Below are positions 1-11,190 of a DNA stretch of 64,000 nucleotides, one piece after another (the stretch's first letter is position 1; every line of letters starts with the position of its first letter). The stretch spans positions 9,727 to 73,726 of IMG/VR virus record IMGVR_UViG_3300009149_000022. One strand, 5' to 3'. The stretch comes from a virus. The translations under genes were made by a program, and so were the position numbers. Below the pieces are notes generated by a model. The model had not been told where the DNA came from, searched no databases, and saw nothing but the letters and a program-made list of their open reading frames with translations.

Positions 1-1
1 A

Positions 2-1270
2 CACCCACAATATAAAGATATCATATATCAATTTAATTTACCCAAGATACTTTTTTGTGATATTGAAACCGATATACACGATGGGTTTCCCGATCCAAAT
101 GTGGCAAAAGAAAAAATAACCGCAATTACAGTTTGTTGGAAAGATGATAACAACAAAATTCAAGTTCTTGTACTAGGAGAAAAAGAAGATTTCGATTATA
201 AAAAACAGAAAGAAATGAACAATTTTATTGTTGATTATTTTTCTAAAGTAACAGATATGGATATCATAATGAAATATTTACATATCCCGGACGAAAAAAA
301 ATTATTAGAATCGTTTGTGAAAATTTGCTCAAAATTTCATGTCTTAACAGGATGGAATTTCATAAATACTTTTCGAGCGAATTGGGCCAATGATAGTGGT
401 TTTGACTGGCCATTCTTATCAAATAGAATGGACTTATTAAAGGTTGACTATAAACAAATATCACCAACAAATAACGTATCTAGGAAAAAAGATATAGGTA
501 AAGTACCTAGTCATTTTGCAATTGTTGATTATATGTATTATTTTGATGCATTTGATAGAAGTATTAAAGTAAAAGAATCTAAAGGTTTAGATTTTGTTTC
601 TGGACAAGTGTTGGGTGTTAAGAAATTGAAATATGGTAACTATCCTGTTATGAATGGGGATGTACTAAAAGAAATGTATCAAAATGATTATGATACATAT
701 TGTATATACAACGCTATTGATACTATTTTAGTGCTCTTAATACACGAAAAAAGACAACCATTTACTGCCATTTTAGCACAAGGAAATGCATCAGGTAATC
801 ATATAGACAAAGCAGATTCTGCTGTTAACGTTACTGAAGGTTTTATGTCAAAAGCATATATCCAAGATAATAAAGTATTGCCCCTTATAGATATATCAAA
901 AAGAGAAAAAGAATCTTATGAAGGTGCATATGTAAAATCTCCAATAGCTGGGTTACACACCCTAACGTGTTGTTATGATTTTAGTTCACTTTATCCTTCT
1001 ATATCTAGATTCTTAGAATTGGGGTTTGAAAATTTTGATAAAAAGATTATAGGAGATTTAAAAAAATATTCAAACTACAAAGAACAATCTGTAAAATTAG
1101 AAAGAACTAATAATGATGAAATAATAAGTGTTACTGGTTGTGTCTTTAAAAAGGGTCAATCTACTTTGAAAACAGTATATGATGATTTGTATGCTGACAG
1201 AAAGAAAAATCAATACCGATCTAAATTGTGTGCAAAAATATCACACGAAATAAAACAAAAACGTAAATAA
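2..1270 (+). CDS. gp43: Family B DNA polymerase, N-terminal piece (3'-5' exonuclease + palm motif A; gp43A-like), 5'-truncated by the window
   Basis: Frame is open back to base 2 and contains ExoI FCDIET, ExoII GWN...FDWPF, ExoIII YNAID, YEGAYV and motif A DFSSLYPS; it ends in the fingers helix (LYADRKK). Confidence 0.93.
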   Translation, partial: HPQYKDIIYQFNLPKILFCDIETDIHDGFPDPNVAKEKITAITVCWKDDNNKIQVLVLGEKEDFDYKKQKEMNNFIVDYFSKVTDMDIIMKYLHIPDEKKLLESFVKICSKFHVLTGWNFINTFRANWANDSGFDWPFLSNRMDLLKVDYKQISPTNNVSRKKDIGKVPSHFAIVDYMYYFDAFDRSIKVKESKGLDFVSGQVLGVKKLKYGNYPVMNGDVLKEMYQNDYDTYCIYNAIDTILVLLIHEKRQPFTAILAQGNASGNHIDKADSAVNVTEGFMSKAYIQDNKVLPLIDISKREKESYEGAYVKSPIAGLHTLTCCYDFSSLYPSISRFLELGFENFDKKIIGDLKKYSNYKEQSVKLERTNNDEIISVTGCVFKKGQSTLKTVYDDLYADRKKNQYRSKLCAKISHEIKQKRK

Positions 1271-1302: not shown

Positions 1303-2091
1303 ATGAAAAAAGTAGTATTAAAAACAGTAGACCTAGTAAAGTTTAACAACTTTATTGATTCATTGATTCCACTTAATGAAACCGGAACTATTTATTTTAA
1401 AATAGATTCTAAATATATTAGTACAGATTCACATAATGATAGTGGTACTATCATTAAGAGTCTGAAATCTGAAATTAGTCAAATATGTGGAGAATCAAAC
1501 TTAGATAGTATTGATAAACCAATTAAACTTTGTTTCTATGATGGTAAAAAAGTAAAGAAAGCATTTTCCTTTTTGAGTGGTAATGAAATTACTTGTGAAA
1601 TATCGTTTTCAGAACTAGAATCAACCGGTGAATATTTTGCAGAAACTGTTAAGATTTCTAGTCCTAAAATATCCATCACATTAGATGCAGCAGACCCAGA
1701 ATTATTCGAATTTGCAAATGTACCAGAAGATAAAATAGAAGAGGTTAAAAATGTTTCAAATGCTGATTGTAATTTTAGAATGAGTGCAAATGAAATTTTA
1801 CAAGTTCAAAAATTCTTAGATTTTGATAAAAATGAAGAAGTTGAATTTAGAGTAAATGGACAAGTTACCGTTTGTTCAGAAGATGCTTATGATATTTCAA
1901 TTTCAGATGATTTCGAAGGATTGCCTAATGGTGGTATGAATATCTATAAAATAGGTAAAGAACTATTTAAATTAGTAGATTCTAATTCATATGTTGTATA
2001 TCCAGTATTAGATGAATGTAAAATAATTTTTAAAGCAGAAGATAATTCTACACAAGTAGTTATCACATTACATGAAGACATAGATTTATAA
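1303..2091 (+). CDS. Sliding clamp (gp45/PCNA-like)
   Basis: 262 aa acidic protein with an alternating alpha/beta clamp-like pattern, lying between polymerase pieces; a clamp loader is present in the window. Confidence 0.65.
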   Translation: MKKVVLKTVDLVKFNNFIDSLIPLNETGTIYFKIDSKYISTDSHNDSGTIIKSLKSEISQICGESNLDSIDKPIKLCFYDGKKVKKAFSFLSGNEITCEISFSELESTGEYFAETVKISSPKISITLDAADPELFEFANVPEDKIEEVKNVSNADCNFRMSANEILQVQKFLDFDKNEEVEFRVNGQVTVCSEDAYDISISDDFEGLPNGGMNIYKIGKELFKLVDSNSYVVYPVLDECKIIFKAEDNSTQVVITLHEDIDL

Positions 2092-2092
2092 T

Positions 2093-2836
2093 ATGTCCAT
2101 AAGCATTAAAAATATGAGCACAGAAGAACTAGAGAATTTCGATTGGGATTCTCTAGATGATTCTCAATTAGATAAAGTTCTTGTTCAGTTAGATGATGAA
2201 GCCAATATTAAGAAAACACTAGAGCAAAGTAACAAATTAGTTCTTAATTCAATATATGGCGCACTTGCGTCTAAATACTTTTATTGGTATGATAAATCAT
2301 TAGCTGAAACTATTACTATACAAGGTCAAGATGCTATTCGATATGCTGAAAAGGCATTAGATTCTTATTTTCATAATGTTTTTCACAAAGATAAATTAGT
2401 TTTGACTAAACTAAAAGAATTGTGTCCAGATGTTAATATTGAACCACAACCGTGTGTGAAACCCACTGTGGTATATATTGATACGGATAGTGTCGATAAA
2501 GATACTATTGTTAGTACTAATAAAGGCAATATTAGAATAGAAGATTTATATAACGAATCTAACAATAGTGCTGGTAATACACAAAACGGTCACGAATCAG
2601 TAACAACCAATAAAACCGTATTAAATTGGTCAAAAGAAAAAGGACTATATCAAGCACCAGTGAAAAGAGTTATTAGACACAAAGTAACTAAAGCAAAGTG
2701 GAAACTTAAAACTAAATCAGGAAAGGAAGTAATCGTAACTAATGACCACTCTATGATTGTTTTTAGGAATGGTATTAAAGTTCAAGTTAAACCATCAGAA
2801 ATTAAAAAAACTGATAAAATATTATCAGTTTTGTAG
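2093..2836 (+). CDS. gp43: PolB middle piece (motif B KLVLNSIYG, first half of motif C YIDTD) fused to a split-intein N-fragment
   Basis: KxxxNSxYG, ITxQGQ and YIDTD are followed by Hint sequence SVDKDTIV...IRIEDLY...VTNDHS. Confidence 0.92.
   Translation: MSISIKNMSTEELENFDWDSLDDSQLDKVLVQLDDEANIKKTLEQSNKLVLNSIYGALASKYFYWYDKSLAETITIQGQDAIRYAEKALDSYFHNVFHKDKLVLTKLKELCPDVNIEPQPCVKPTVVYIDTDSVDKDTIVSTNKGNIRIEDLYNESNNSAGNTQNGHESVTTNKTVLNWSKEKGLYQAPVKRVIRHKVTKAKWKLKTKSGKEVIVTNDHSMIVFRNGIKVQVKPSEIKKTDKILSVL
2489..2833 (+). other. Split intein N-fragment (115 aa, Ser1)
   Basis: Block A SVDKDTIV, block B VIVTNDHS (TxxH), ends KPSEIKKTDKILSVL-stop. Confidence 0.92.
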
Positions 2837-2912
2837 TTCATTATGGAAAGAATTAATATGGCATAATGGACAAAGAAAACAAATTCAATAGAACAAGTAG
2901 AAAAAATAGTAA

Positions 2913-3041
2913 ATGAAATACGAAATAGAAGAAATAGAATCAATTGAGTGTATAGGAGATTTCGAAGATGAATATGTCTATGATATTGAAGTAGATGACG
3001 ATACTCACACTTTCATTGCTAATGGTATATTAGTTCATAAT
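2913..3041 (+). other. Split intein C-fragment (43 aa, ends HN, +1 Ser)
   Basis: Block F VYDIEV and block G ILVHN/S, with its own ATG. Confidence 0.93.
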
Positions 3042-3866
3042 AGTGCTTATGTTACTTTCGAAGAGGTTGCGGAAAAAATTAATTGGACGGGTTCTCCTAC
3101 TGATCTTGTATTAACTATTAATGAAATTAGATTATCTGGTTATCTAAAAAAGGTATTTGATAAATACGCCGAATCTTACAACACAGATAATTATTTAGAT
3201 TTCGAATTAGAAACTATTAGTAAATCTGGTATATGGGTTAAGAAAAAGAAATACACACAAGATATTGTGTGGGCTGATGGTAAATTCTATGATAGTGGAA
3301 CATATACAAAAACAACCGGTCTTGAAATTATTAGACTAACAACACCACCTTTTTGTAGACCTGAATTATCTAAATTGGTTCAATGGATATTTGATAAAGG
3401 TAAAAACTTTACACAAAGAGATATAACCATTGAATTACTAAAACTAAAGAAACGATTTGCCATAGCAGGTATAGAAGACATTTCGATAACAACAGCAATT
3501 GGTGACTATGAAAAATATGTTATAGATGACAAAGACTCTTTAAATCTCAATGATGGTTGTGGTACACATATTAGAGGTGCTGCGATTTATAATATGTACA
3601 TTAATAACAATTCATCATATGAAAATCAATACGAAAGGTTAAAAACGGGTGACAAGGTAAAATGGTATTATGCAAAATCACATAAATCAGATTATAACGT
3701 TTTTAGTTTTAAACGTGGTTCATTCCCTAAAGAATTTGCACCAGAAGTGGATATTGATTTGATGTTTGAAAAAACTATCATAAATCCATTAAACAACATA
3801 CTACAAGCAATACCAGGTATTAATAAACTATCTGGATCTTTAAAAATTAAAAATCGTTTATTTTAA
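2913..3866 (+). CDS. gp43: Split-intein C-fragment fused to PolB C-terminal piece (rest of palm, thumb)
   Basis: YVYDIEV...HTFIANGILVHN then SAYVTF, KKKY, TGLEIIR, HIRGA. Confidence 0.93.
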   Translation: MKYEIEEIESIECIGDFEDEYVYDIEVDDDTHTFIANGILVHNSAYVTFEEVAEKINWTGSPTDLVLTINEIRLSGYLKKVFDKYAESYNTDNYLDFELETISKSGIWVKKKKYTQDIVWADGKFYDSGTYTKTTGLEIIRLTTPPFCRPELSKLVQWIFDKGKNFTQRDITIELLKLKKRFAIAGIEDISITTAIGDYEKYVIDDKDSLNLNDGCGTHIRGAAIYNMYINNNSSYENQYERLKTGDKVKWYYAKSHKSDYNVFSFKRGSFPKEFAPEVDIDLMFEKTIINPLNNILQAIPGINKLSGSLKIKNRLF

Positions 3867-3883
3867 AAAAATGAAATAATTAT

Positions 3884-5104
3884 ATGACAAAAGTAAGTAA
3901 AAAACACAGTTCTGTCGATGACATATTCAAAGAATTAGGAGAAGTTAACCCCTTTGGAACAAGTTCCTTTGGTAATTCAGAAACCTATAAGAATGAAACA
4001 TGGATAGATTCTGGTAATTGGATTTTAAATGCAGCCCTAAGTGGATCAATAAAAAAAGGGTTTCCAAGTACTAAACAAACCAGTTTAGTAGGAGAATCTG
4101 GTAGTGGAAAAACATTCTTAACATTGAACGCTGTAAGAAATGCCCAACAAATGGGTTACACACCAATATATTACGATACAGAAGGTGCTGTTGATCCACA
4201 AGCATGTATAAATTTTGGAATTGATTTAGATAATTTTAGACACGAACCAGTTTCCGAAATCGAAAAACTGAAAACCATGTTTGCTATTTTTATCAAGAGT
4301 TTAACAGATTTAAAAATAAAAGGTAAAGAAATTCCAAAATTTATTTTGATTCTAGATTCTATTGGTATGGTTGCATCATCTAAAGAAATCGAAGATGCGA
4401 GAACGGGTAATAGTGCTGCGGATATGACAAGAGCAAAACAAATACGATCTTTTTTTAGAATAATCACATCTGATTTAAATTCATTGGGAATACCTATGTT
4501 ATTCACAAATCACGTAGGTGTTAATATAGGAGGATATGGTGATCCTGTTGTACAAGGTGGTGGTAGTGGTGTGGTTTATTCACCAAGTATTACATTATTT
4601 TTATCTAAAGCTAAATTGAAAGATGATAAAGGTGATGATAAGAAACAAACTGGTGTTATAGTTACAGCAAAAACCGGTAAAAATAGATTTGCACAACCAA
4701 AAACAATTAAATTCCCCATTTTCTTTGATAGACCGTTTAATAGATATATGGGTGTACAAGATTATTTGACTTGGGAAAATGTGGGTATTGCAAAGGGTAA
4801 TATTTTAACAGAAAAAGAATATAGTAAACTCAAAGGTGCTGAATTAGAAAAAGTTAAATCATTCACACCATCTGGTAGTGAAGAAGTAATGTATTTTATG
4901 CCAAAAGAAACAGCTAGGAATTATGTTATTGAACATTTGGGTATTACGGTTGACGCACGAAACTTATTTACTGATAAAGTAATGTTACCCTTAGAAGACC
5001 GATTCGATAAAGTTATTAGAAAAGATTTTGAGTTTAGTTCCCAAGAATCTGATAGTGAAATAGATGGTTTGATAGATGAATCTGATGAAGAAATCGAAGA
5101 TTAA
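3884..5104 (+). CDS. uvsX: UvsX/RecA-like recombinase
   Basis: GESGSGKT, YDTEGA, ILDSIG, DMTRAK, GGG motif, KNRF. Confidence 0.93.
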   Translation: MTKVSKKHSSVDDIFKELGEVNPFGTSSFGNSETYKNETWIDSGNWILNAALSGSIKKGFPSTKQTSLVGESGSGKTFLTLNAVRNAQQMGYTPIYYDTEGAVDPQACINFGIDLDNFRHEPVSEIEKLKTMFAIFIKSLTDLKIKGKEIPKFILILDSIGMVASSKEIEDARTGNSAADMTRAKQIRSFFRIITSDLNSLGIPMLFTNHVGVNIGGYGDPVVQGGGSGVVYSPSITLFLSKAKLKDDKGDDKKQTGVIVTAKTGKNRFAQPKTIKFPIFFDRPFNRYMGVQDYLTWENVGIAKGNILTEKEYSKLKGAELEKVKSFTPSGSEEVMYFMPKETARNYVIEHLGITVDARNLFTDKVMLPLEDRFDKVIRKDFEFSSQESDSEIDGLIDESDEEIED

Positions 5105-5190
5105 AATTGTTAATACATAAATACAAAACCGAATTATCTATGATTTTTCGGTTTTTTGTGTTCATTAAATATATAAAATATGATAATCAC

Positions 5191-5394
5191 ATGAAAGGTT
5201 TATGCGACATACTAAAAGAATCAAAAGAATCCGATAAATTAGCTAATGGAATAAATAAAGCTATTGTGAAAATTGATGATAATATGAGTTATACTGATTT
5301 TGCACTTGCTGTTGCAAAGATTCTAAAAGATGAATATGGTGAACATAATTTCGAACCATTCACTAAAGTTCTACACAAAGAATTAGGAATGTGA
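5191..5394 (+). CDS. Small hypothetical protein with capsid-targeting-like leader
   Basis: ATG 5191 after TTAAATA; MKGLCDILKES; followed by a terminator. Confidence 0.6.
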   Translation: MKGLCDILKESKESDKLANGINKAIVKIDDNMSYTDFALAVAKILKDEYGEHNFEPFTKVLHKELGM

Positions 5395-5419
5395 TTTCAC
5401 ATTGCTACATAAAATATAT

Positions 5420-5450
5420 AAAAGGACTAAAATTATTTAGTCCTTTTTTT
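5420..5450 (+). terminator. Intrinsic terminator
   Basis: AAAAGGACTAAA-loop-TTTAGTCCTTTTTTT. Confidence 0.8.
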
Positions 5451-5476
5451 GTTGTAATATACAAATAAGATTGTAT

Positions 5477-6775
5477 ATGATAAACACAAGTGAATTTGAA
5501 AAGATTTTTTTACTTTTCGCATTAGAAAATCCGGTATATTTAGAACCCATAGAAAGATCATTTTTTTCTGTTCCTGAAATAGATTTACTTGCAATAATTT
5601 CTAAAAAATATTATAAGAAATTCAAAAAAGCACCATCAAAAGAAAACTTGTGGATGTTAATATCTACTGGTGAATTAGAAGAAAAATGTCCTAAGATTTT
5701 TTTCGATGAAATATTTAAGAAAAACATTAGAGAATATGATATTGAATGGGTTGAACAAACGGCACAATCTTGGATTAAATGGAAACACTTAGATTCTTCA
5801 ATTGTAGATACTGTTGAATATATAAACACCGCAAAAGTTACACCAGAAAATGTTGGTGAAATTGTTGATAGTGTTAAGAATATGATTAATGGTAGAAACA
5901 ATCTAACATTTGATGATGATCTGGGTACAGACTTTTTTGATGCAAAATCCCATAAAAGAAATGCAGAAGATTTACTTAGTTCTAATTACGATTTCATAGA
6001 TAAAAACTTAGGTGGTCATTCTAAAGGTACACTAAATGTGTATATTGCACCACCTAATACTGGTAAGTCATTATTCCTTTGTCAAGATGCTGCTAATTAT
6101 ATTAAATCGGGAAAAAATGTTTTATACATTTCATTAGAAATGCAAGGACAAAAGGTACATAAACGAATAGGTTCTGATATTTTCAACATAAATATAAGTC
6201 AATACGACAAAAAAGCCGAAGATTTAGACTATATGCAACGTAAGATTACTGAATTCAAAGAAATGAATTTAGTAACACCGGGTGCATTAACAGTTAGGAA
6301 TTACGAAACTAGTAATGCAACAGCTGATGATATTGATAATTTTATTGGTAAAATACAAGATATAACTGGTATAATATATGATGTTGTTTTGGTTGACTAT
6401 ATCAACATCATGAAAGATAAAAGAAATCCTAATTCTGAATCTACATATTTGAAAATTAAAAATATATCAGAGGATTTAAGAGCAGTTGCACAAAGAAGAC
6501 ATGTTGTGATGATAAGTGCCACACAAACAAATAAAATGGGAATAGAATCGTCTAATTTAAATTTAAGCCATATTGCAGAGTCAGCTGGTCTTGCTGCAAC
6601 TTGTGATACTATTATGGCTATTATACAAACAGCTGAAATGAATTTAGAAAATTTCTATTGGTTGAAACTCATAAAAGTTAGAGATGGATCAAAGGGTGCT
6701 AAATGTCGTATCAATATAGACTATGATTATATGAGACTTACTGAAACCAATACTGTTATGTTCGATTCGGAATAA
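5477..6775 (+). CDS. gp41: Replicative DnaB-like helicase (gp41)
   Basis: APPNTGKS, YISLEM, LVDYIN, SATQTN, IAESAGL, KVRDG. Confidence 0.93.
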   Translation: MINTSEFEKIFLLFALENPVYLEPIERSFFSVPEIDLLAIISKKYYKKFKKAPSKENLWMLISTGELEEKCPKIFFDEIFKKNIREYDIEWVEQTAQSWIKWKHLDSSIVDTVEYINTAKVTPENVGEIVDSVKNMINGRNNLTFDDDLGTDFFDAKSHKRNAEDLLSSNYDFIDKNLGGHSKGTLNVYIAPPNTGKSLFLCQDAANYIKSGKNVLYISLEMQGQKVHKRIGSDIFNINISQYDKKAEDLDYMQRKITEFKEMNLVTPGALTVRNYETSNATADDIDNFIGKIQDITGIIYDVVLVDYINIMKDKRNPNSESTYLKIKNISEDLRAVAQRRHVVMISATQTNKMGIESSNLNLSHIAESAGLAATCDTIMAIIQTAEMNLENFYWLKLIKVRDGSKGAKCRINIDYDYMRLTETNTVMFDSE

Positions 6776-6860: not shown

Positions 6861-7808
6861 ATGAAGATAACCGAAAATGATAATATACAATGGGAAAGAA
6901 TGGGAATTTACATATTACTAAATGAAAACGGAAAGTGTTATATAGGTAGTACTAACAATATAAAAAATAGATATTTTAGACATAAACACCTGTTGGTGAA
7001 TGGTAAACACGGCAAGTATATACAAAGAGCATATAATAAAAAAACAGCTAAGTTTAATTTTGAAATATTGGAATATGTAGACGATGTTAAAGATTTAAGA
7101 AAAAGAGAGGCACACTATATAAAAGAATACCAATCTATGTACTATCAAAATGGATATAATATTTTTGATGTGGATGATAATGGATATTTTTGCCATTCAG
7201 ATGAAACTAAAAAGAAAATATCAGAAGCAAATAGAGGTAAAATACCATATATAGATATTTTTGGGGCACATGGTGTGACAACTAAAGATGATACAAGATG
7301 GGAAAGTGGCGAAATATATCACAATACTACAAATAAAGTTTCTTGTATAGATAGTAATGGAAATACTAAAGTGGTAACTATGGAAGAATTTGAATCATCA
7401 AAAGATTTGTTTGGTGTCAATAAAGGTAAAAGTACATACAAGGACAAGTATGGAAATACTACAATGACTACCATAGATGACCCTAGAGTATTAAGTGGTG
7501 AGTTGGTTGGTATTACTAAAGGAATACCTTCATTGCATGCCAAGGTAATTACTGTTGATGGTATAACATATCGTTCGTTAGAAGATGCATATACAACACT
7601 AGGAATATCAAAACCAACTTTCCGTAAACTATTAAAGGATGTAAATAATATTATATCTACCGTTCCATTTCAAGTGTCATTGTCAAAATATTTAGACGAA
7701 AAAAATAAAAGACAAGTTATTATAGATGGTATTGTATATAAGAATATGACAGTTGCTGTGAAAGAATTAGGAATAAGTAGGTATAAATTAAAAAAACATG
7801 AAAGCTAG
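6861..7808 (+). CDS. Free-standing GIY-YIG homing endonuclease (Seg-like; NUMOD3 and HTH tail)
   Basis: GIYILL...YIGST, REAHYI, GYN, HSDETKKKISEA, two C-terminal DGIxY HTH-like repeats. Confidence 0.9.
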   Translation: MKITENDNIQWERMGIYILLNENGKCYIGSTNNIKNRYFRHKHLLVNGKHGKYIQRAYNKKTAKFNFEILEYVDDVKDLRKREAHYIKEYQSMYYQNGYNIFDVDDNGYFCHSDETKKKISEANRGKIPYIDIFGAHGVTTKDDTRWESGEIYHNTTNKVSCIDSNGNTKVVTMEEFESSKDLFGVNKGKSTYKDKYGNTTMTTIDDPRVLSGELVGITKGIPSLHAKVITVDGITYRSLEDAYTTLGISKPTFRKLLKDVNNIISTVPFQVSLSKYLDEKNKRQVIIDGIVYKNMTVAVKELGISRYKLKKHES

Positions 7809-9531: not shown

Positions 9532-11190
9532 ATGAAGTTAATTAAGTTAGAATATAGAAACTTTAATTCATACGGTAATAAGGTTACTACAATTGACTTC
9601 ACTGACAAAGGTAGTATGATTATGCTTATCGGTCAATCTGGACATGGTAAATCTTCTGTAAGAGAAGTTGTGTCTTATTTGATTTATGGTAAAGTACAAG
9701 ATAAAAAACTAGGAGATTTACCCAATAGAGTTAATAAATCACTTTGGGGTAAAATAACTTTAAGTGCAAAGGGTTCAATTATTACAATTGAAAGAGGTAT
9801 TAGTCCAAAAGTATTAGAAGTTACAATTGATGGTCAAATTCAAGATGTTGCTGGGAATAGTAATATTCAAGGTATCATTGAAAATGATTATATGAAAATC
9901 CCACAATCCACGTTTGATAATGTTATTTCGATTTCGGTTGATAAGTTCAAATCCTTTTTGACAATGAAACCATCTGACAAACGAAAGATATTAGATCAAA
10001 TTTTCGGTATTTTGTTTTTCAATAAGATTCACGATTCTTTAAAAGATCAAGTAAAGGAATTCAGTTCAGATATAAAAAATTTAGATGGTCAAGTTAGGGT
10101 TTTGTTAGAAAACAAAAAGTCAATAGTCGAAAAGATAGAAAAAATAGATAAAGAAAAATCTAAAGACATTACGAACAAATTAGAAGAAGTTGTTTCACAA
10201 GTTAATTTATTAAACGAACACTTGATTGAATTAAATGAAAAATCAAAAACGGTTTCAGAAAAATCAAACACAGTATTTGAAAAAATGAATACCTTAAACA
10301 AAACTAAAACTGATTATGGATATAAGATCAAAGATTGTAATCACAAATTAGAAATTTATAATAATGATTCTTGTCCAACGTGCGGTTCTGATTTAACTGA
10401 TGATATTCATAAAAAGTTCCAAGAAAAGGTTAAGGAAGATAAAGAAATGTTTGAATCTAAATTACTTGAAACAGGAACAGCAATTACTAAACTAAAAGAA
10501 GTCACCGTAAAAATTGATAATAAAAAAAGAGAACTTAACGATTCTATTTATGACATTAGATTAAATTTAGATAAATTAAAATCTACACAAGAATCTTTGT
10601 CAAAACCAAAAGAAGAAAAAAGTGAATTCGATTCGGTTTTACAAAATACTATTAATAAGATAGACAGTATTCTTTTAGACATTGAAAAAAATAAAAAGAA
10701 CGAATATCTATATACAGAACTCAGTAAAATTTTTGGGGAAGATGGTGTGAAGTTACAAATAATGAAAAACTTCTTACCCAGTTTTAATAAATCTATAAAC
10801 GAAATAAGCAAAAAATTACATTTTCCATACAAAATAGAAATAGATGAAAAATTTAACAGTAAATTATTATCTATTGGGGAAGAAATAACAGCTAAAACGT
10901 TAAGTACTGGAGAAAGAAAAAAAGCAGATTTCGCTGTGTTAATTTCTTTAATTCATATTATGAAAAGAAATTATCCTAATATAAATCTTTTGTTTTTGGA
11001 TGAAATTCTTGCTAGTATTGATTCGTATGGTGTGTATGAGATGTTAAGTCTAATCCGCACGGTTGTTGATGAATTAGATTTAACGGTATTTATCGTAAAT
11101 CATTCGGAATTGCCCAAGGAAATGTTTGATTTTATATATTCTGTTAATAAGGTTGCAGGGTTTAGTGAATTGGAGATAAATCCTTGTTAA
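9532..11190 (+). CDS. gp46: Recombination ATPase subunit, Rad50/SbcC-like (gp46)
   Basis: NFNSYG, GQSGHGKSS, coiled coil with CPTC zinc hook, LSTGE signature, LFLDE. Confidence 0.94.
   Translation: MKLIKLEYRNFNSYGNKVTTIDFTDKGSMIMLIGQSGHGKSSVREVVSYLIYGKVQDKKLGDLPNRVNKSLWGKITLSAKGSIITIERGISPKVLEVTIDGQIQDVAGNSNIQGIIENDYMKIPQSTFDNVISISVDKFKSFLTMKPSDKRKILDQIFGILFFNKIHDSLKDQVKEFSSDIKNLDGQVRVLLENKKSIVEKIEKIDKEKSKDITNKLEEVVSQVNLLNEHLIELNEKSKTVSEKSNTVFEKMNTLNKTKTDYGYKIKDCNHKLEIYNNDSCPTCGSDLTDDIHKKFQEKVKEDKEMFESKLLETGTAITKLKEVTVKIDNKKRELNDSIYDIRLNLDKLKSTQESLSKPKEEKSEFDSVLQNTINKIDSILLDIEKNKKNEYLYTELSKIFGEDGVKLQIMKNFLPSFNKSINEISKKLHFPYKIEIDEKFNSKLLSIGEEITAKTLSTGERKKADFAVLISLIHIMKRNYPNINLLFLDEILASIDSYGVYEMLSLIRTVVDELDLTVFIVNHSELPKEMFDFIYSVNKVAGFSELEINPC

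Follow-up and report, generated by a model that had tools for sequence, protein, structure and literature searches.

We analyzed a 64,000-nucleotide (nt) stretch of viral DNA (the window; positions 9,727 to 73,726 of the IMG/VR record IMGVR_UViG_3300009149_000022), at the left end of which the gene for a family B DNA polymerase (PolB) is interrupted by the two halves of an intein. We interpret these halves as a functional, naturally split class 1 mini-intein of the Ser1/Ser+1 type, inserted after the DTD of motif C in the PolB of a T4-like or jumbo phage, and put the probability of this reading at about 0.88. It draws on the anatomy of the halves, their homology to characterized inteins, the conservation of the break point among related loci, purifying selection on both halves, and their predicted docking. 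An earlier reading of the sequence (the original prediction) had proposed a naturally split class 1 intein that rebuilds the DTDS motif in trans, and every sequence-level test that we applied supports that mechanism. The intein is not new in kind: the element falls in a known Ser1/Ser+1 PolB family of T4-like phages, members of which have already been crystallized and used as tools.

Anatomy of the intein halves and the polymerase junction

The polymerase is spread over three open reading frames (ORFs), namely, fragment 1, fragment 2, which ends with the N-terminal intein half (IntN), and fragment 3, which starts with the C-terminal half (IntC) (Table 1). The ORF at 2093..2836 encodes 247 amino acids (aa), in which VVYIDTD is followed by SVDKDTIV, with Ser1 at 2489-2491; IntN then runs on through GKEVIVTNDHSMIV to KILSVL and a TAG stop codon, for a total of 115 aa. 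The ORF at 2913..3866, which lies in a different frame (2913 is 0 and 2093 is 2 modulo 3), begins with MKYEIEE and arrives, at the end of a 43-aa IntC, at ILVHN/SAYVTF. IntN contains Ser1, block A (SVDKDTIV), the NX motif Arg-His (RHKV), and block B (TNDH), and IntC holds blocks F and G (VYDIEVDDDTHTFIANGILVHN). Both halves thus have the form originally described for them, that is, YIDTD followed by a 115-aa IntN with Ser1 and TxxH (YIDTD/S and TNDH) and a separate-frame ORF opening with a 43-aa IntC that ends in HN/S (VHN/S in ORF 2913-3866).

Profile searches unified both halves with known inteins. Pfam PF14890 (Intein_splicing) matched residues 143-244 of ORF 2093-2836 over profile positions 6-93 with 37.3 bits (cut-off, 35.8) and residues 6-43 of ORF 2913-3866 over positions 121-155 with 23.8 bits, which is under the 35.8 cut-off, as expected for 43 aa; a six-frame search of the contig with the same profile gave 41.6 bits. 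The part of the profile missing between the halves (positions 93-121) is where inteins carry endonuclease domains, and the break, between motifs N4 and C2, falls at this endonuclease insertion position with the halves on separate ORFs, as in fractured genes. A first-residue nucleophile, the TxxH motif, His-Asn followed by Ser+1, and a profile score above the curated threshold together place the element, by its sequence, among the class 1 inteins.

The position of the insert was delimited by three polymerase profiles, each of which stops at the end of the N-extein in fragment 2 and resumes at the start of the C-extein in fragment 3: PF00136 stops at position 247 in ORF 2093-2836 and restarts at 245 in ORF 2913-3866, phrog_1918 stops at 108 and restarts at 104, and phrog_262 stops at 582 and restarts at 581. 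The intein-less gp43 of a cyanophage reads SDTDSIYI at this site, and its alignment to the C-extein is colinear and begins at that Ser; hence, the predicted ligated product is YIDTD-SAYV. The profiles and the intein-less gp43 accordingly place the junction at DTD/S, in agreement with the original expectation that trans-splicing would restore DTDS. The PHROGs family phrog_27191 covers fragment 2 with IntN included. As a separate observation, the annotated gp43 coding sequence of Synechococcus phage ACG-2014f_Syn7803C7 (L043; record positions 122177-123346) is only 390 aa long and starts just before motif B, so that this polymerase, too, seems to be broken in the fingers; it has no intein at motif C.

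The two halves differ in composition as had been noted from the translations. IntN has 18 Lys and 4 Arg versus 11 Asp/Glu (net charge, +11), and IntC has 6 Asp and 8 Glu versus a single Lys (net charge, -13); opposite net charges of this kind are found in fractured-gene inteins. Cysteine is absent from IntN and occurs once in IntC, at residue 13, a variable position that is occupied by Q, M, L, K, V, or E in homologues, and this lone Cys is noncatalytic. Because both junctions are free of Cys, the chemistry is predicted to be cysteine independent. Dassa-type fractured-gene inteins use Cys1.

The break point among related loci and the evidence for trans-splicing

A scan of IMG/VR with IntN as the query recovered 34 loci, to which we added Tenacibaculum phage PTm1, the uncultured phage LR756500, and Aeromonas phage Aes123 from GenBank, for a total of 37. 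The intein is split in 32 of these loci and contiguous in 5 (L008, L014, L019, L029, and L032; about 5001-5530 in each), in which it occupies the same DTD/S site and a short linker is all that separates the halves. In all 32 split relatives, the break falls within a few residues of one point, after TDK(I/V)L. A long gap of ~1.0 to 2.1 kb separates the halves in 29 of the 32, and the gap is short in the other 3 (77 nt in L005, 210 nt in L006, and 404 nt in L037). L005 and L006 originate from two other metagenomes; their IntN shares 82% identity with that of the window, and the three loci group as a clade with support of 97/96. The contiguous forms fall, with weak support, in four places among the split forms of the tree.

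That five related loci have an uninterrupted intein ORF could be taken to mean that the split in the window is an assembly or sequencing artifact or a recent inactivating mutation in a contiguous, cis-splicing mini-intein. We consider this exceedingly improbable. The 76-nt spacer has stop codons in all three frames (in the IntC frame, four of them, TAG, TAG, TAG, and TAA, in the 24 nt before the ATG, and in the IntN frame TAG and then TAA), and the halves are therefore not joined by a single indel, TAG read-through, or a simple frameshift. The same break, with an alignable spacer, is present in L005 and L006; its position agrees with that in the 29 long-gap loci, most of which bear an endonuclease gene; and both halves have been under purifying selection since the divergence from L005 and L006 at a number of synonymous substitutions per synonymous site (dS) of ~0.7 to 0.9. 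The comparative evidence for a real split is strong and argues against an assembly error. Recoding of TAG, as in Lak phages, was also considered and rejected: TAG ends 7 of the 52 long ORFs of the window (TAA ends 41 and TGA 4), and with TAG read as sense, TAA stops remain in both frames.

The IntN stop codon is followed immediately by a hairpin (2834-2871), which is reminiscent of the take-off site of T4 gene 60, and a ribosome that bypassed (hopped) or shifted frame across the spacer would produce a cis-intein precursor from one mRNA. This is likewise highly improbable. Downstream of the last stop in the IntC frame there is no in-frame landing codon that matches TTG, the last sense codon, and the only codon match, TCA (2825 and 2940), spans 112 nt and would remove the first nine residues of IntC, which are conserved and are predicted to contact IntN. 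The take-off codons differ in L005 and L006 (AGG-TAA), and the relatives with 1- to 2-kb gaps, which cannot be hopped, break at the same place. On these grounds we rejected both a frameshift and a hop.

Turning to function, we compared the catalytic positions across 21 split homologues. Ser1, the NX His, and the Thr and His of the T..H motif are invariant in IntN, as is H-N-S across IntC and the +1 position. The NX motif of the window is Arg63-His64 (VIRHKV), and all 21 homologues have Arg or Lys in front of the His; the Mootz and Pietrokovski groups reported that this motif is confined to Ser1 inteins and that three of these inteins require it (PMC10189870). Comparison of the window with L005 and L006 gave ratios of nonsynonymous to synonymous substitution (dN/dS) of 0.15 to 0.17 for IntN and 0.04 to 0.05 for IntC, similar to the 0.07 to 0.17 of the exteins, all of these values being rough at a partly saturated dS of 0.7 to 1.5. 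They suggest that the intein has been kept under purifying selection without its endonuclease. In docking predictions, IntN (with 5 extein residues) and IntC (with 7) scored a median ipSAE of 0.84 over three runs that agreed in at least 93% of contacts, with a partner pLDDT (predicted local distance difference test) of at least 77, and the best of three controls scored 0.00. Of 80 solved complexes, 58 reach the mark applied, as do 2 of 110 mismatched pairs; because split-intein complexes have already been solved, passing it indicates likeness to them, not binding. The IntC start codon lies in an A-rich context without a Shine-Dalgarno (SD) sequence, which is typical of this genome (SD-like core in 1 of the 52 long ORFs).

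The predicted docking, together with a first polymerase break (between fragments 1 and 2) that lacks any intein, is what could be expected if the halves were splicing dead and served only as a noncovalent docking pair that holds the polymerase pieces together. We regard this as improbable. Ser1, the Arg-His NX motif, TNDH, His-Asn, and Ser+1 are all present and invariant in the 21 homologues; an unspliced 158-residue intein would separate the catalytic Asp residues from the next strand of motif C; and close family members splice in vitro. Homologues inserted at the DTD/S site have been purified, and their trans-splicing in vitro ranges from ~30% (Aes123) to near quantitative (LCGC14) (PMC11923092, PMC12707363, PMC10189870).

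The locus thus holds a real and probably functional split intein. Because the insert lies within motif C and homologues splice in vitro, we infer that it splices in vivo and that the enzyme depends on splicing. Two proteins would be made, one running from the fingers to YIDTD and ending with the basic IntN and the other consisting of the acidic IntC, SAYV, and the remainder up to the thumb. Electrostatic capture would bring the halves together to fold as a single HINT domain, and splicing would follow an oxyester pathway, with an N-O shift at Ser1, transesterification to Ser+1, and Asn cyclization. This would release a 406-aa chain with an intact YIDTDSAYV active site, which would act jointly with the separately encoded 502-aa exonuclease/motif A fragment. 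Several points weigh against this reading. The case at this locus is built from sequence comparison and predicted docking, the dN/dS values are approximate as stated above, and wild-type Aes123 is only ~30% efficient in vitro, so that homology is no guarantee of splicing efficiency. A second polymerase may be encoded elsewhere in the genome: no further PolB was found on the contig, which is ~27% complete.

The spacer, the lost endonuclease, and the genomic setting

Most relatives have a free-standing endonuclease gene between the halves, which is absent from the window, where there are only 76 nt. Most of the 29 long-gap loci hold an ORF of 344 to 567 aa in the gap, and all full-length gap ORFs belong to a single BLAST-linked cluster that includes the "putative VSR endonuclease" of Aes123, this clustering being the basis of the family assignment. 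In Pfam searches with the relatives' endonucleases, DUF559 and MTES_1575 (Vsr-like fold) appeared below threshold only, DUF7487 was clearly above threshold in one protein, and treble-clef zinc-finger families (DUF4379 and DUF723) were found in another (L007).

The 210-nt spacer of L006 encodes a 66-aa remnant, residues 7-48 of which match the L013 endonuclease (400 aa) at residues 10-52; the end of the remnant matches the C terminus of that endonuclease, which overlaps the start of IntC. Only the two flanks of this remnant are left in the spacers of the window and L005. Since the L006 remnant matches both ends of the L013 endonuclease and the window and L005 keep its flanks, the 76-nt spacer is the remainder of a deleted Vsr-type homing endonuclease gene, and the loci line up as a deletion series from the full gene through the 210-nt remnant to 77 and 76 nt. 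In this history, the locus was once a fractured gene whose halves were separated by a free-standing homing endonuclease gene of the Vsr type, and the lineage of the window, L005, and L006 deleted that gene, leaving in the window 76 nt and a hairpin. Loss of the endonuclease is step III of the fractured-gene model and has been observed at locus gp41-7 (Dassa 2009).

Two further observations were made on the relatives themselves. L037 has, at 5375-5749, a truncated version (124 aa; 96% identity over 119 aa) of the endonuclease that is 344 aa long in L038 (5375-6409); this is a second case of endonuclease decay, independent of the first, in the Aes123-like branch. Between L005 (4097-4650) and L006 (5001-5687), dS is 0.19 and 0 in the intein halves and 0.8 and 1.5 in the flanking exteins, which suggests that lateral exchange or gene conversion has recently moved the intein cassette between these diverged polymerase genes.

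The hairpin of the window starts at the last base of the IntN stop codon and has a minimum free energy of -10.3 kcal/mol (z, -2.5 versus shuffled sequences); at the corresponding position, L005 and L006 each have a hairpin that differs from it in sequence. Stronger hairpins (14 to 17 bp; z, -4.3 to -4.9) in L013 (5368-5418), L024 (about 935-977), and L035 (5351-5398) cover the start codon of the endonuclease, which suggests that they mask its translation, and such hairpins upstream of a free-standing endonuclease have been described in fractured genes (Dassa 2009). More speculatively, the clade of the window, L005, and L006 might represent a stable stage after endonuclease loss, in which the hairpin, formerly a mask over the endonuclease start, has been kept and reused (e.g., to set the translation ratio of the IntC-thumb protein or to stabilize the transcript) and the intein is an efficient cysteine-independent splicer orthogonal to CLm and LCGC14. 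This proposal, which regards the +11/-13 charge segregation as unusually strong, seems to us rather unlikely.

The window belongs to a 73.7-kb IMG/VR virus contig and has a GC content of 29.3%; no near-identical DNA was found among GenBank phages. The scarcity of SD-like cores noted above, together with leaders that are 53% A, is compatible with an SD-independent host such as Bacteroidota. Among cultured relatives, the closest is PTm1, which infects Tenacibaculum. The left end of the window is a T4-type replication module, in which the polymerase is followed by UvsX/RecA, a large ORF (5471-6775) that, as read by eye, resembles a DnaB/gp41-type helicase, and a GIY-YIG endonuclease. The last of these (6861-7808), directly 3' of the helicase-like ORF, is free-standing and has NUMOD3 and I-TevI DNA-binding domains. 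The full ORF of polymerase fragment 1 encodes 502 aa and, in the contig sequence, starts 239 nt upstream of the window.

Between fragments 1 and 2 lies a 262-aa ORF (1303-2091) for which no Pfam, PHROG, or PDB sequence match was found. Its AlphaFold2 model (pLDDT, 82.9; predicted template modeling score, 0.80) recovered only sliding clamps as the top matches in a Foldseek search of the PDB (PCNA, 9-1-1, and T4 gp45, 6drt_A; E values of about 4e-10 to 9e-9; template modeling [TM] scores of 0.54 to 0.72), and we predict that it folds as a sliding clamp. A homologue occurs shortly upstream of the IntN-bearing fragment in PTm1, where it is annotated as hypothetical, and in LR756500; another 13 IMG/VR loci also include a homologue. 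For annotation, this means that three or four ORFs that pipelines call separately constitute one polymerase with a clamp gene in between.

Table 1. Coordinates, within the window, of the split polymerase and the elements associated with it
Feature	Coordinates	Strand	Basis
PolB fragment 1: exonuclease domain and palm motif A (DFSSLYPS)	1..1270	+	Pfam PF03104; PF00136 positions 19-134
Predicted sliding-clamp gene, 262 aa, between polymerase fragments 1 and 2 and outside the intein	1303..2091	+	Fold search
PolB fragment 2, N-extein, 132 aa: fingers motif B (KLVLNSIYG) to motif C, ending in YIDTD	2093..2488	+	PF00136 positions 155-247; phrog_262 positions 498-582
IntN, 115 aa and TAG stop	2489..2836	+	PF14890 profile 6-93; homology to 9HTH
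Hairpin, 10 bp, arms 2836-2845 and 2862-2871	2836..2871	+	Folding energy versus shuffles
Spacer, 76 nt, vestige of a deleted free-standing Vsr-type homing endonuclease gene	2837..2912	+	Comparison with related loci
IntC, 43 aa	2913..3041	+	PF14890 profile 121-155; homology to 8CPN/8CPO and 9HTH
PolB fragment 3, C-extein, 274 aa and stop, Ser+1 first (SAYVTF), rest of palm and thumb	3042..3866	+	PF00136 positions 245-453; phrog_262 positions 581-837

Significance and relation to characterized split inteins

The tool literature describes split inteins that are cysteine independent and active at ambient temperature as rare and sought after (PMC10189870, PMC12707363). The window locus and its ~35 relatives in IMG/VR constitute a pool of natural candidates, including endonuclease-free and contiguous versions of one allele. 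The window intein, the sequence of which is distinct from those of the characterized members, is a possibly useful additional candidate for cysteine-independent trans-splicing; it may be orthogonal to existing tools, as one of dozens of such candidates. In evolutionary terms, one allele occurs as a contiguous form, split with an endonuclease gene, with a decaying remnant, and with the endonuclease lost; these are several states of the fractured-gene model, which they illustrate without adding a new principle. The modest extra interest is in this comparative series around the window, and the intein itself will not surprise a specialist.

By its sequence, the window intein groups with the Ser1/Ser+1 PolB split inteins of T4-like phages, represented by Aes123 PolB1, CP21, LCGC14, and GOM-OPS-1. 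The best match to IntN in the structural database was PDB 9HTH (E value, 2.8e-10), which is identical in sequence to the Aes123 PolB1 intein (L039), and IntC matched the PolB16 intein (8CPN/8CPO; E value, 1.5e-8) and 9HTH (E value, 1.5e-3). With the Aes123 group the window intein shares insertion after DTD with Ser1/Ser+1, the NX His, and homology to a characterized member. The Aes123 PolB1 intein itself (Aeromonas salmonicida T4-like phages, JN377899), the parent of the engineered CL and CLm, which are with it established cysteine-less tools, has the same DTD/S site in gp43, Ser1/Ser+1, an NX Lys/Arg-His, and the same split at the endonuclease position (IntN of 120 aa and IntC of 39 aa, versus 115 and 43 aa in the window). 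Its IntN is also basic and its IntC acidic (+8/-11, versus +11/-13), and its polymerase is likewise encoded by three genes (43A, 43B1, and 43B2), annotated, with the gene in the gap, as gp43A, gp43B1 with the N-intein, VSR endonuclease, and gp43B2 with the C-intein. Identity to the window is only ~31% in IntN and 56% in IntC. Unlike the window, Aes123 retains the 353-aa "putative VSR endonuclease" gene between the halves and has no clamp gene between 43A and 43B1, and unlike this cysteine-free group, the window intein has the one Cys in IntC.

The closest named relatives are PTm1 (56% identity in IntN and 70% in IntC) and LR756500 (54% and 77%). ORF-239, ORF-240, and ORF-241 of Tenacibaculum phages PTm1/PTm5 are annotated as "intein-containing split DNA polymerase precursor," "VSR endonuclease," and "DNA polymerase," respectively. 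PTm1 and LR756500 have a three-gene polymerase, as in the window, with a clamp-like gene after fragment 1 and one more ORF before fragment 2, and, unlike the window, an endonuclease gene (347 or 567 aa) between the halves; in PTm1, a further endonuclease-like ORF follows the clamp gene. Three cysteine-less inteins with the typical split, from phage or metagenomic PolB, were characterized in 2025 (Angew Chem 2025, PMC12707363), namely, GOM-OPS-1 PolB2, LCGC14 PolB2, and CP21 PolB1; they have an IntN of 115 to 120 aa and an IntC of 42 to 46 aa, and the tests paired a DTD N-extein with SAY or SCY C-exteins. They are known biochemically, in contrast to the window intein, which is known from its sequence, and it is none of the three, the conserved strings of the window intein being absent from the supplement of PMC12707363. 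The two genes of GOM-OPS-1 are 47 nt apart by the published coordinates; it is thus endonuclease free like the window, and such a version has therefore already been handled in the literature. PolB16 OarG (8CPN/8CPO) is a Ser1/Ser+1 PolB intein at GDTD/S with an NX histidine and a homologous IntC region and, unlike the window intein, is atypically split (IntN of 15 aa and IntC of 168 aa).

The precedents named in the original prediction, cyanobacterial DnaE, the Nanoarchaeum PolB, and fractured genes, are apt, but they leave out the direct relatives, i.e., Aes123 PolB1, CP21 PolB1, LCGC14 PolB2, and GOM-OPS-1 PolB2. The fractured genes of Dassa 2009 (gp41, NrdA, NrdJ, and IMPDH) resemble the window in the break between N4 and C2, the Vsr-like endonucleases of relatives, the upstream hairpin, and the complementary charges, and they differ from it in host gene and splice chemistry. 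Unlike at those loci, the intein allele of the window is seen in the whole series from contiguous through split with an endonuclease gene and remnant to none. The Nanoarchaeum equitans Pol and cyanobacterial DnaE inteins exemplify natural trans-splicing of a replicative polymerase, as proposed here, with the halves encoded, unlike in the window, at distant loci. The N. equitans Pol intein is also cysteine-less and needs 50 to 70°C. DnaE uses Cys chemistry and has the opposite polarity, with a negative N half and a positive C half (Dassa 2009); the reversal of this polarity, to which the original prediction had drawn attention, is thus genuine, yet it is a family trait common to Aes123, PTm1, and the other relatives checked and is not specific to the window locus.

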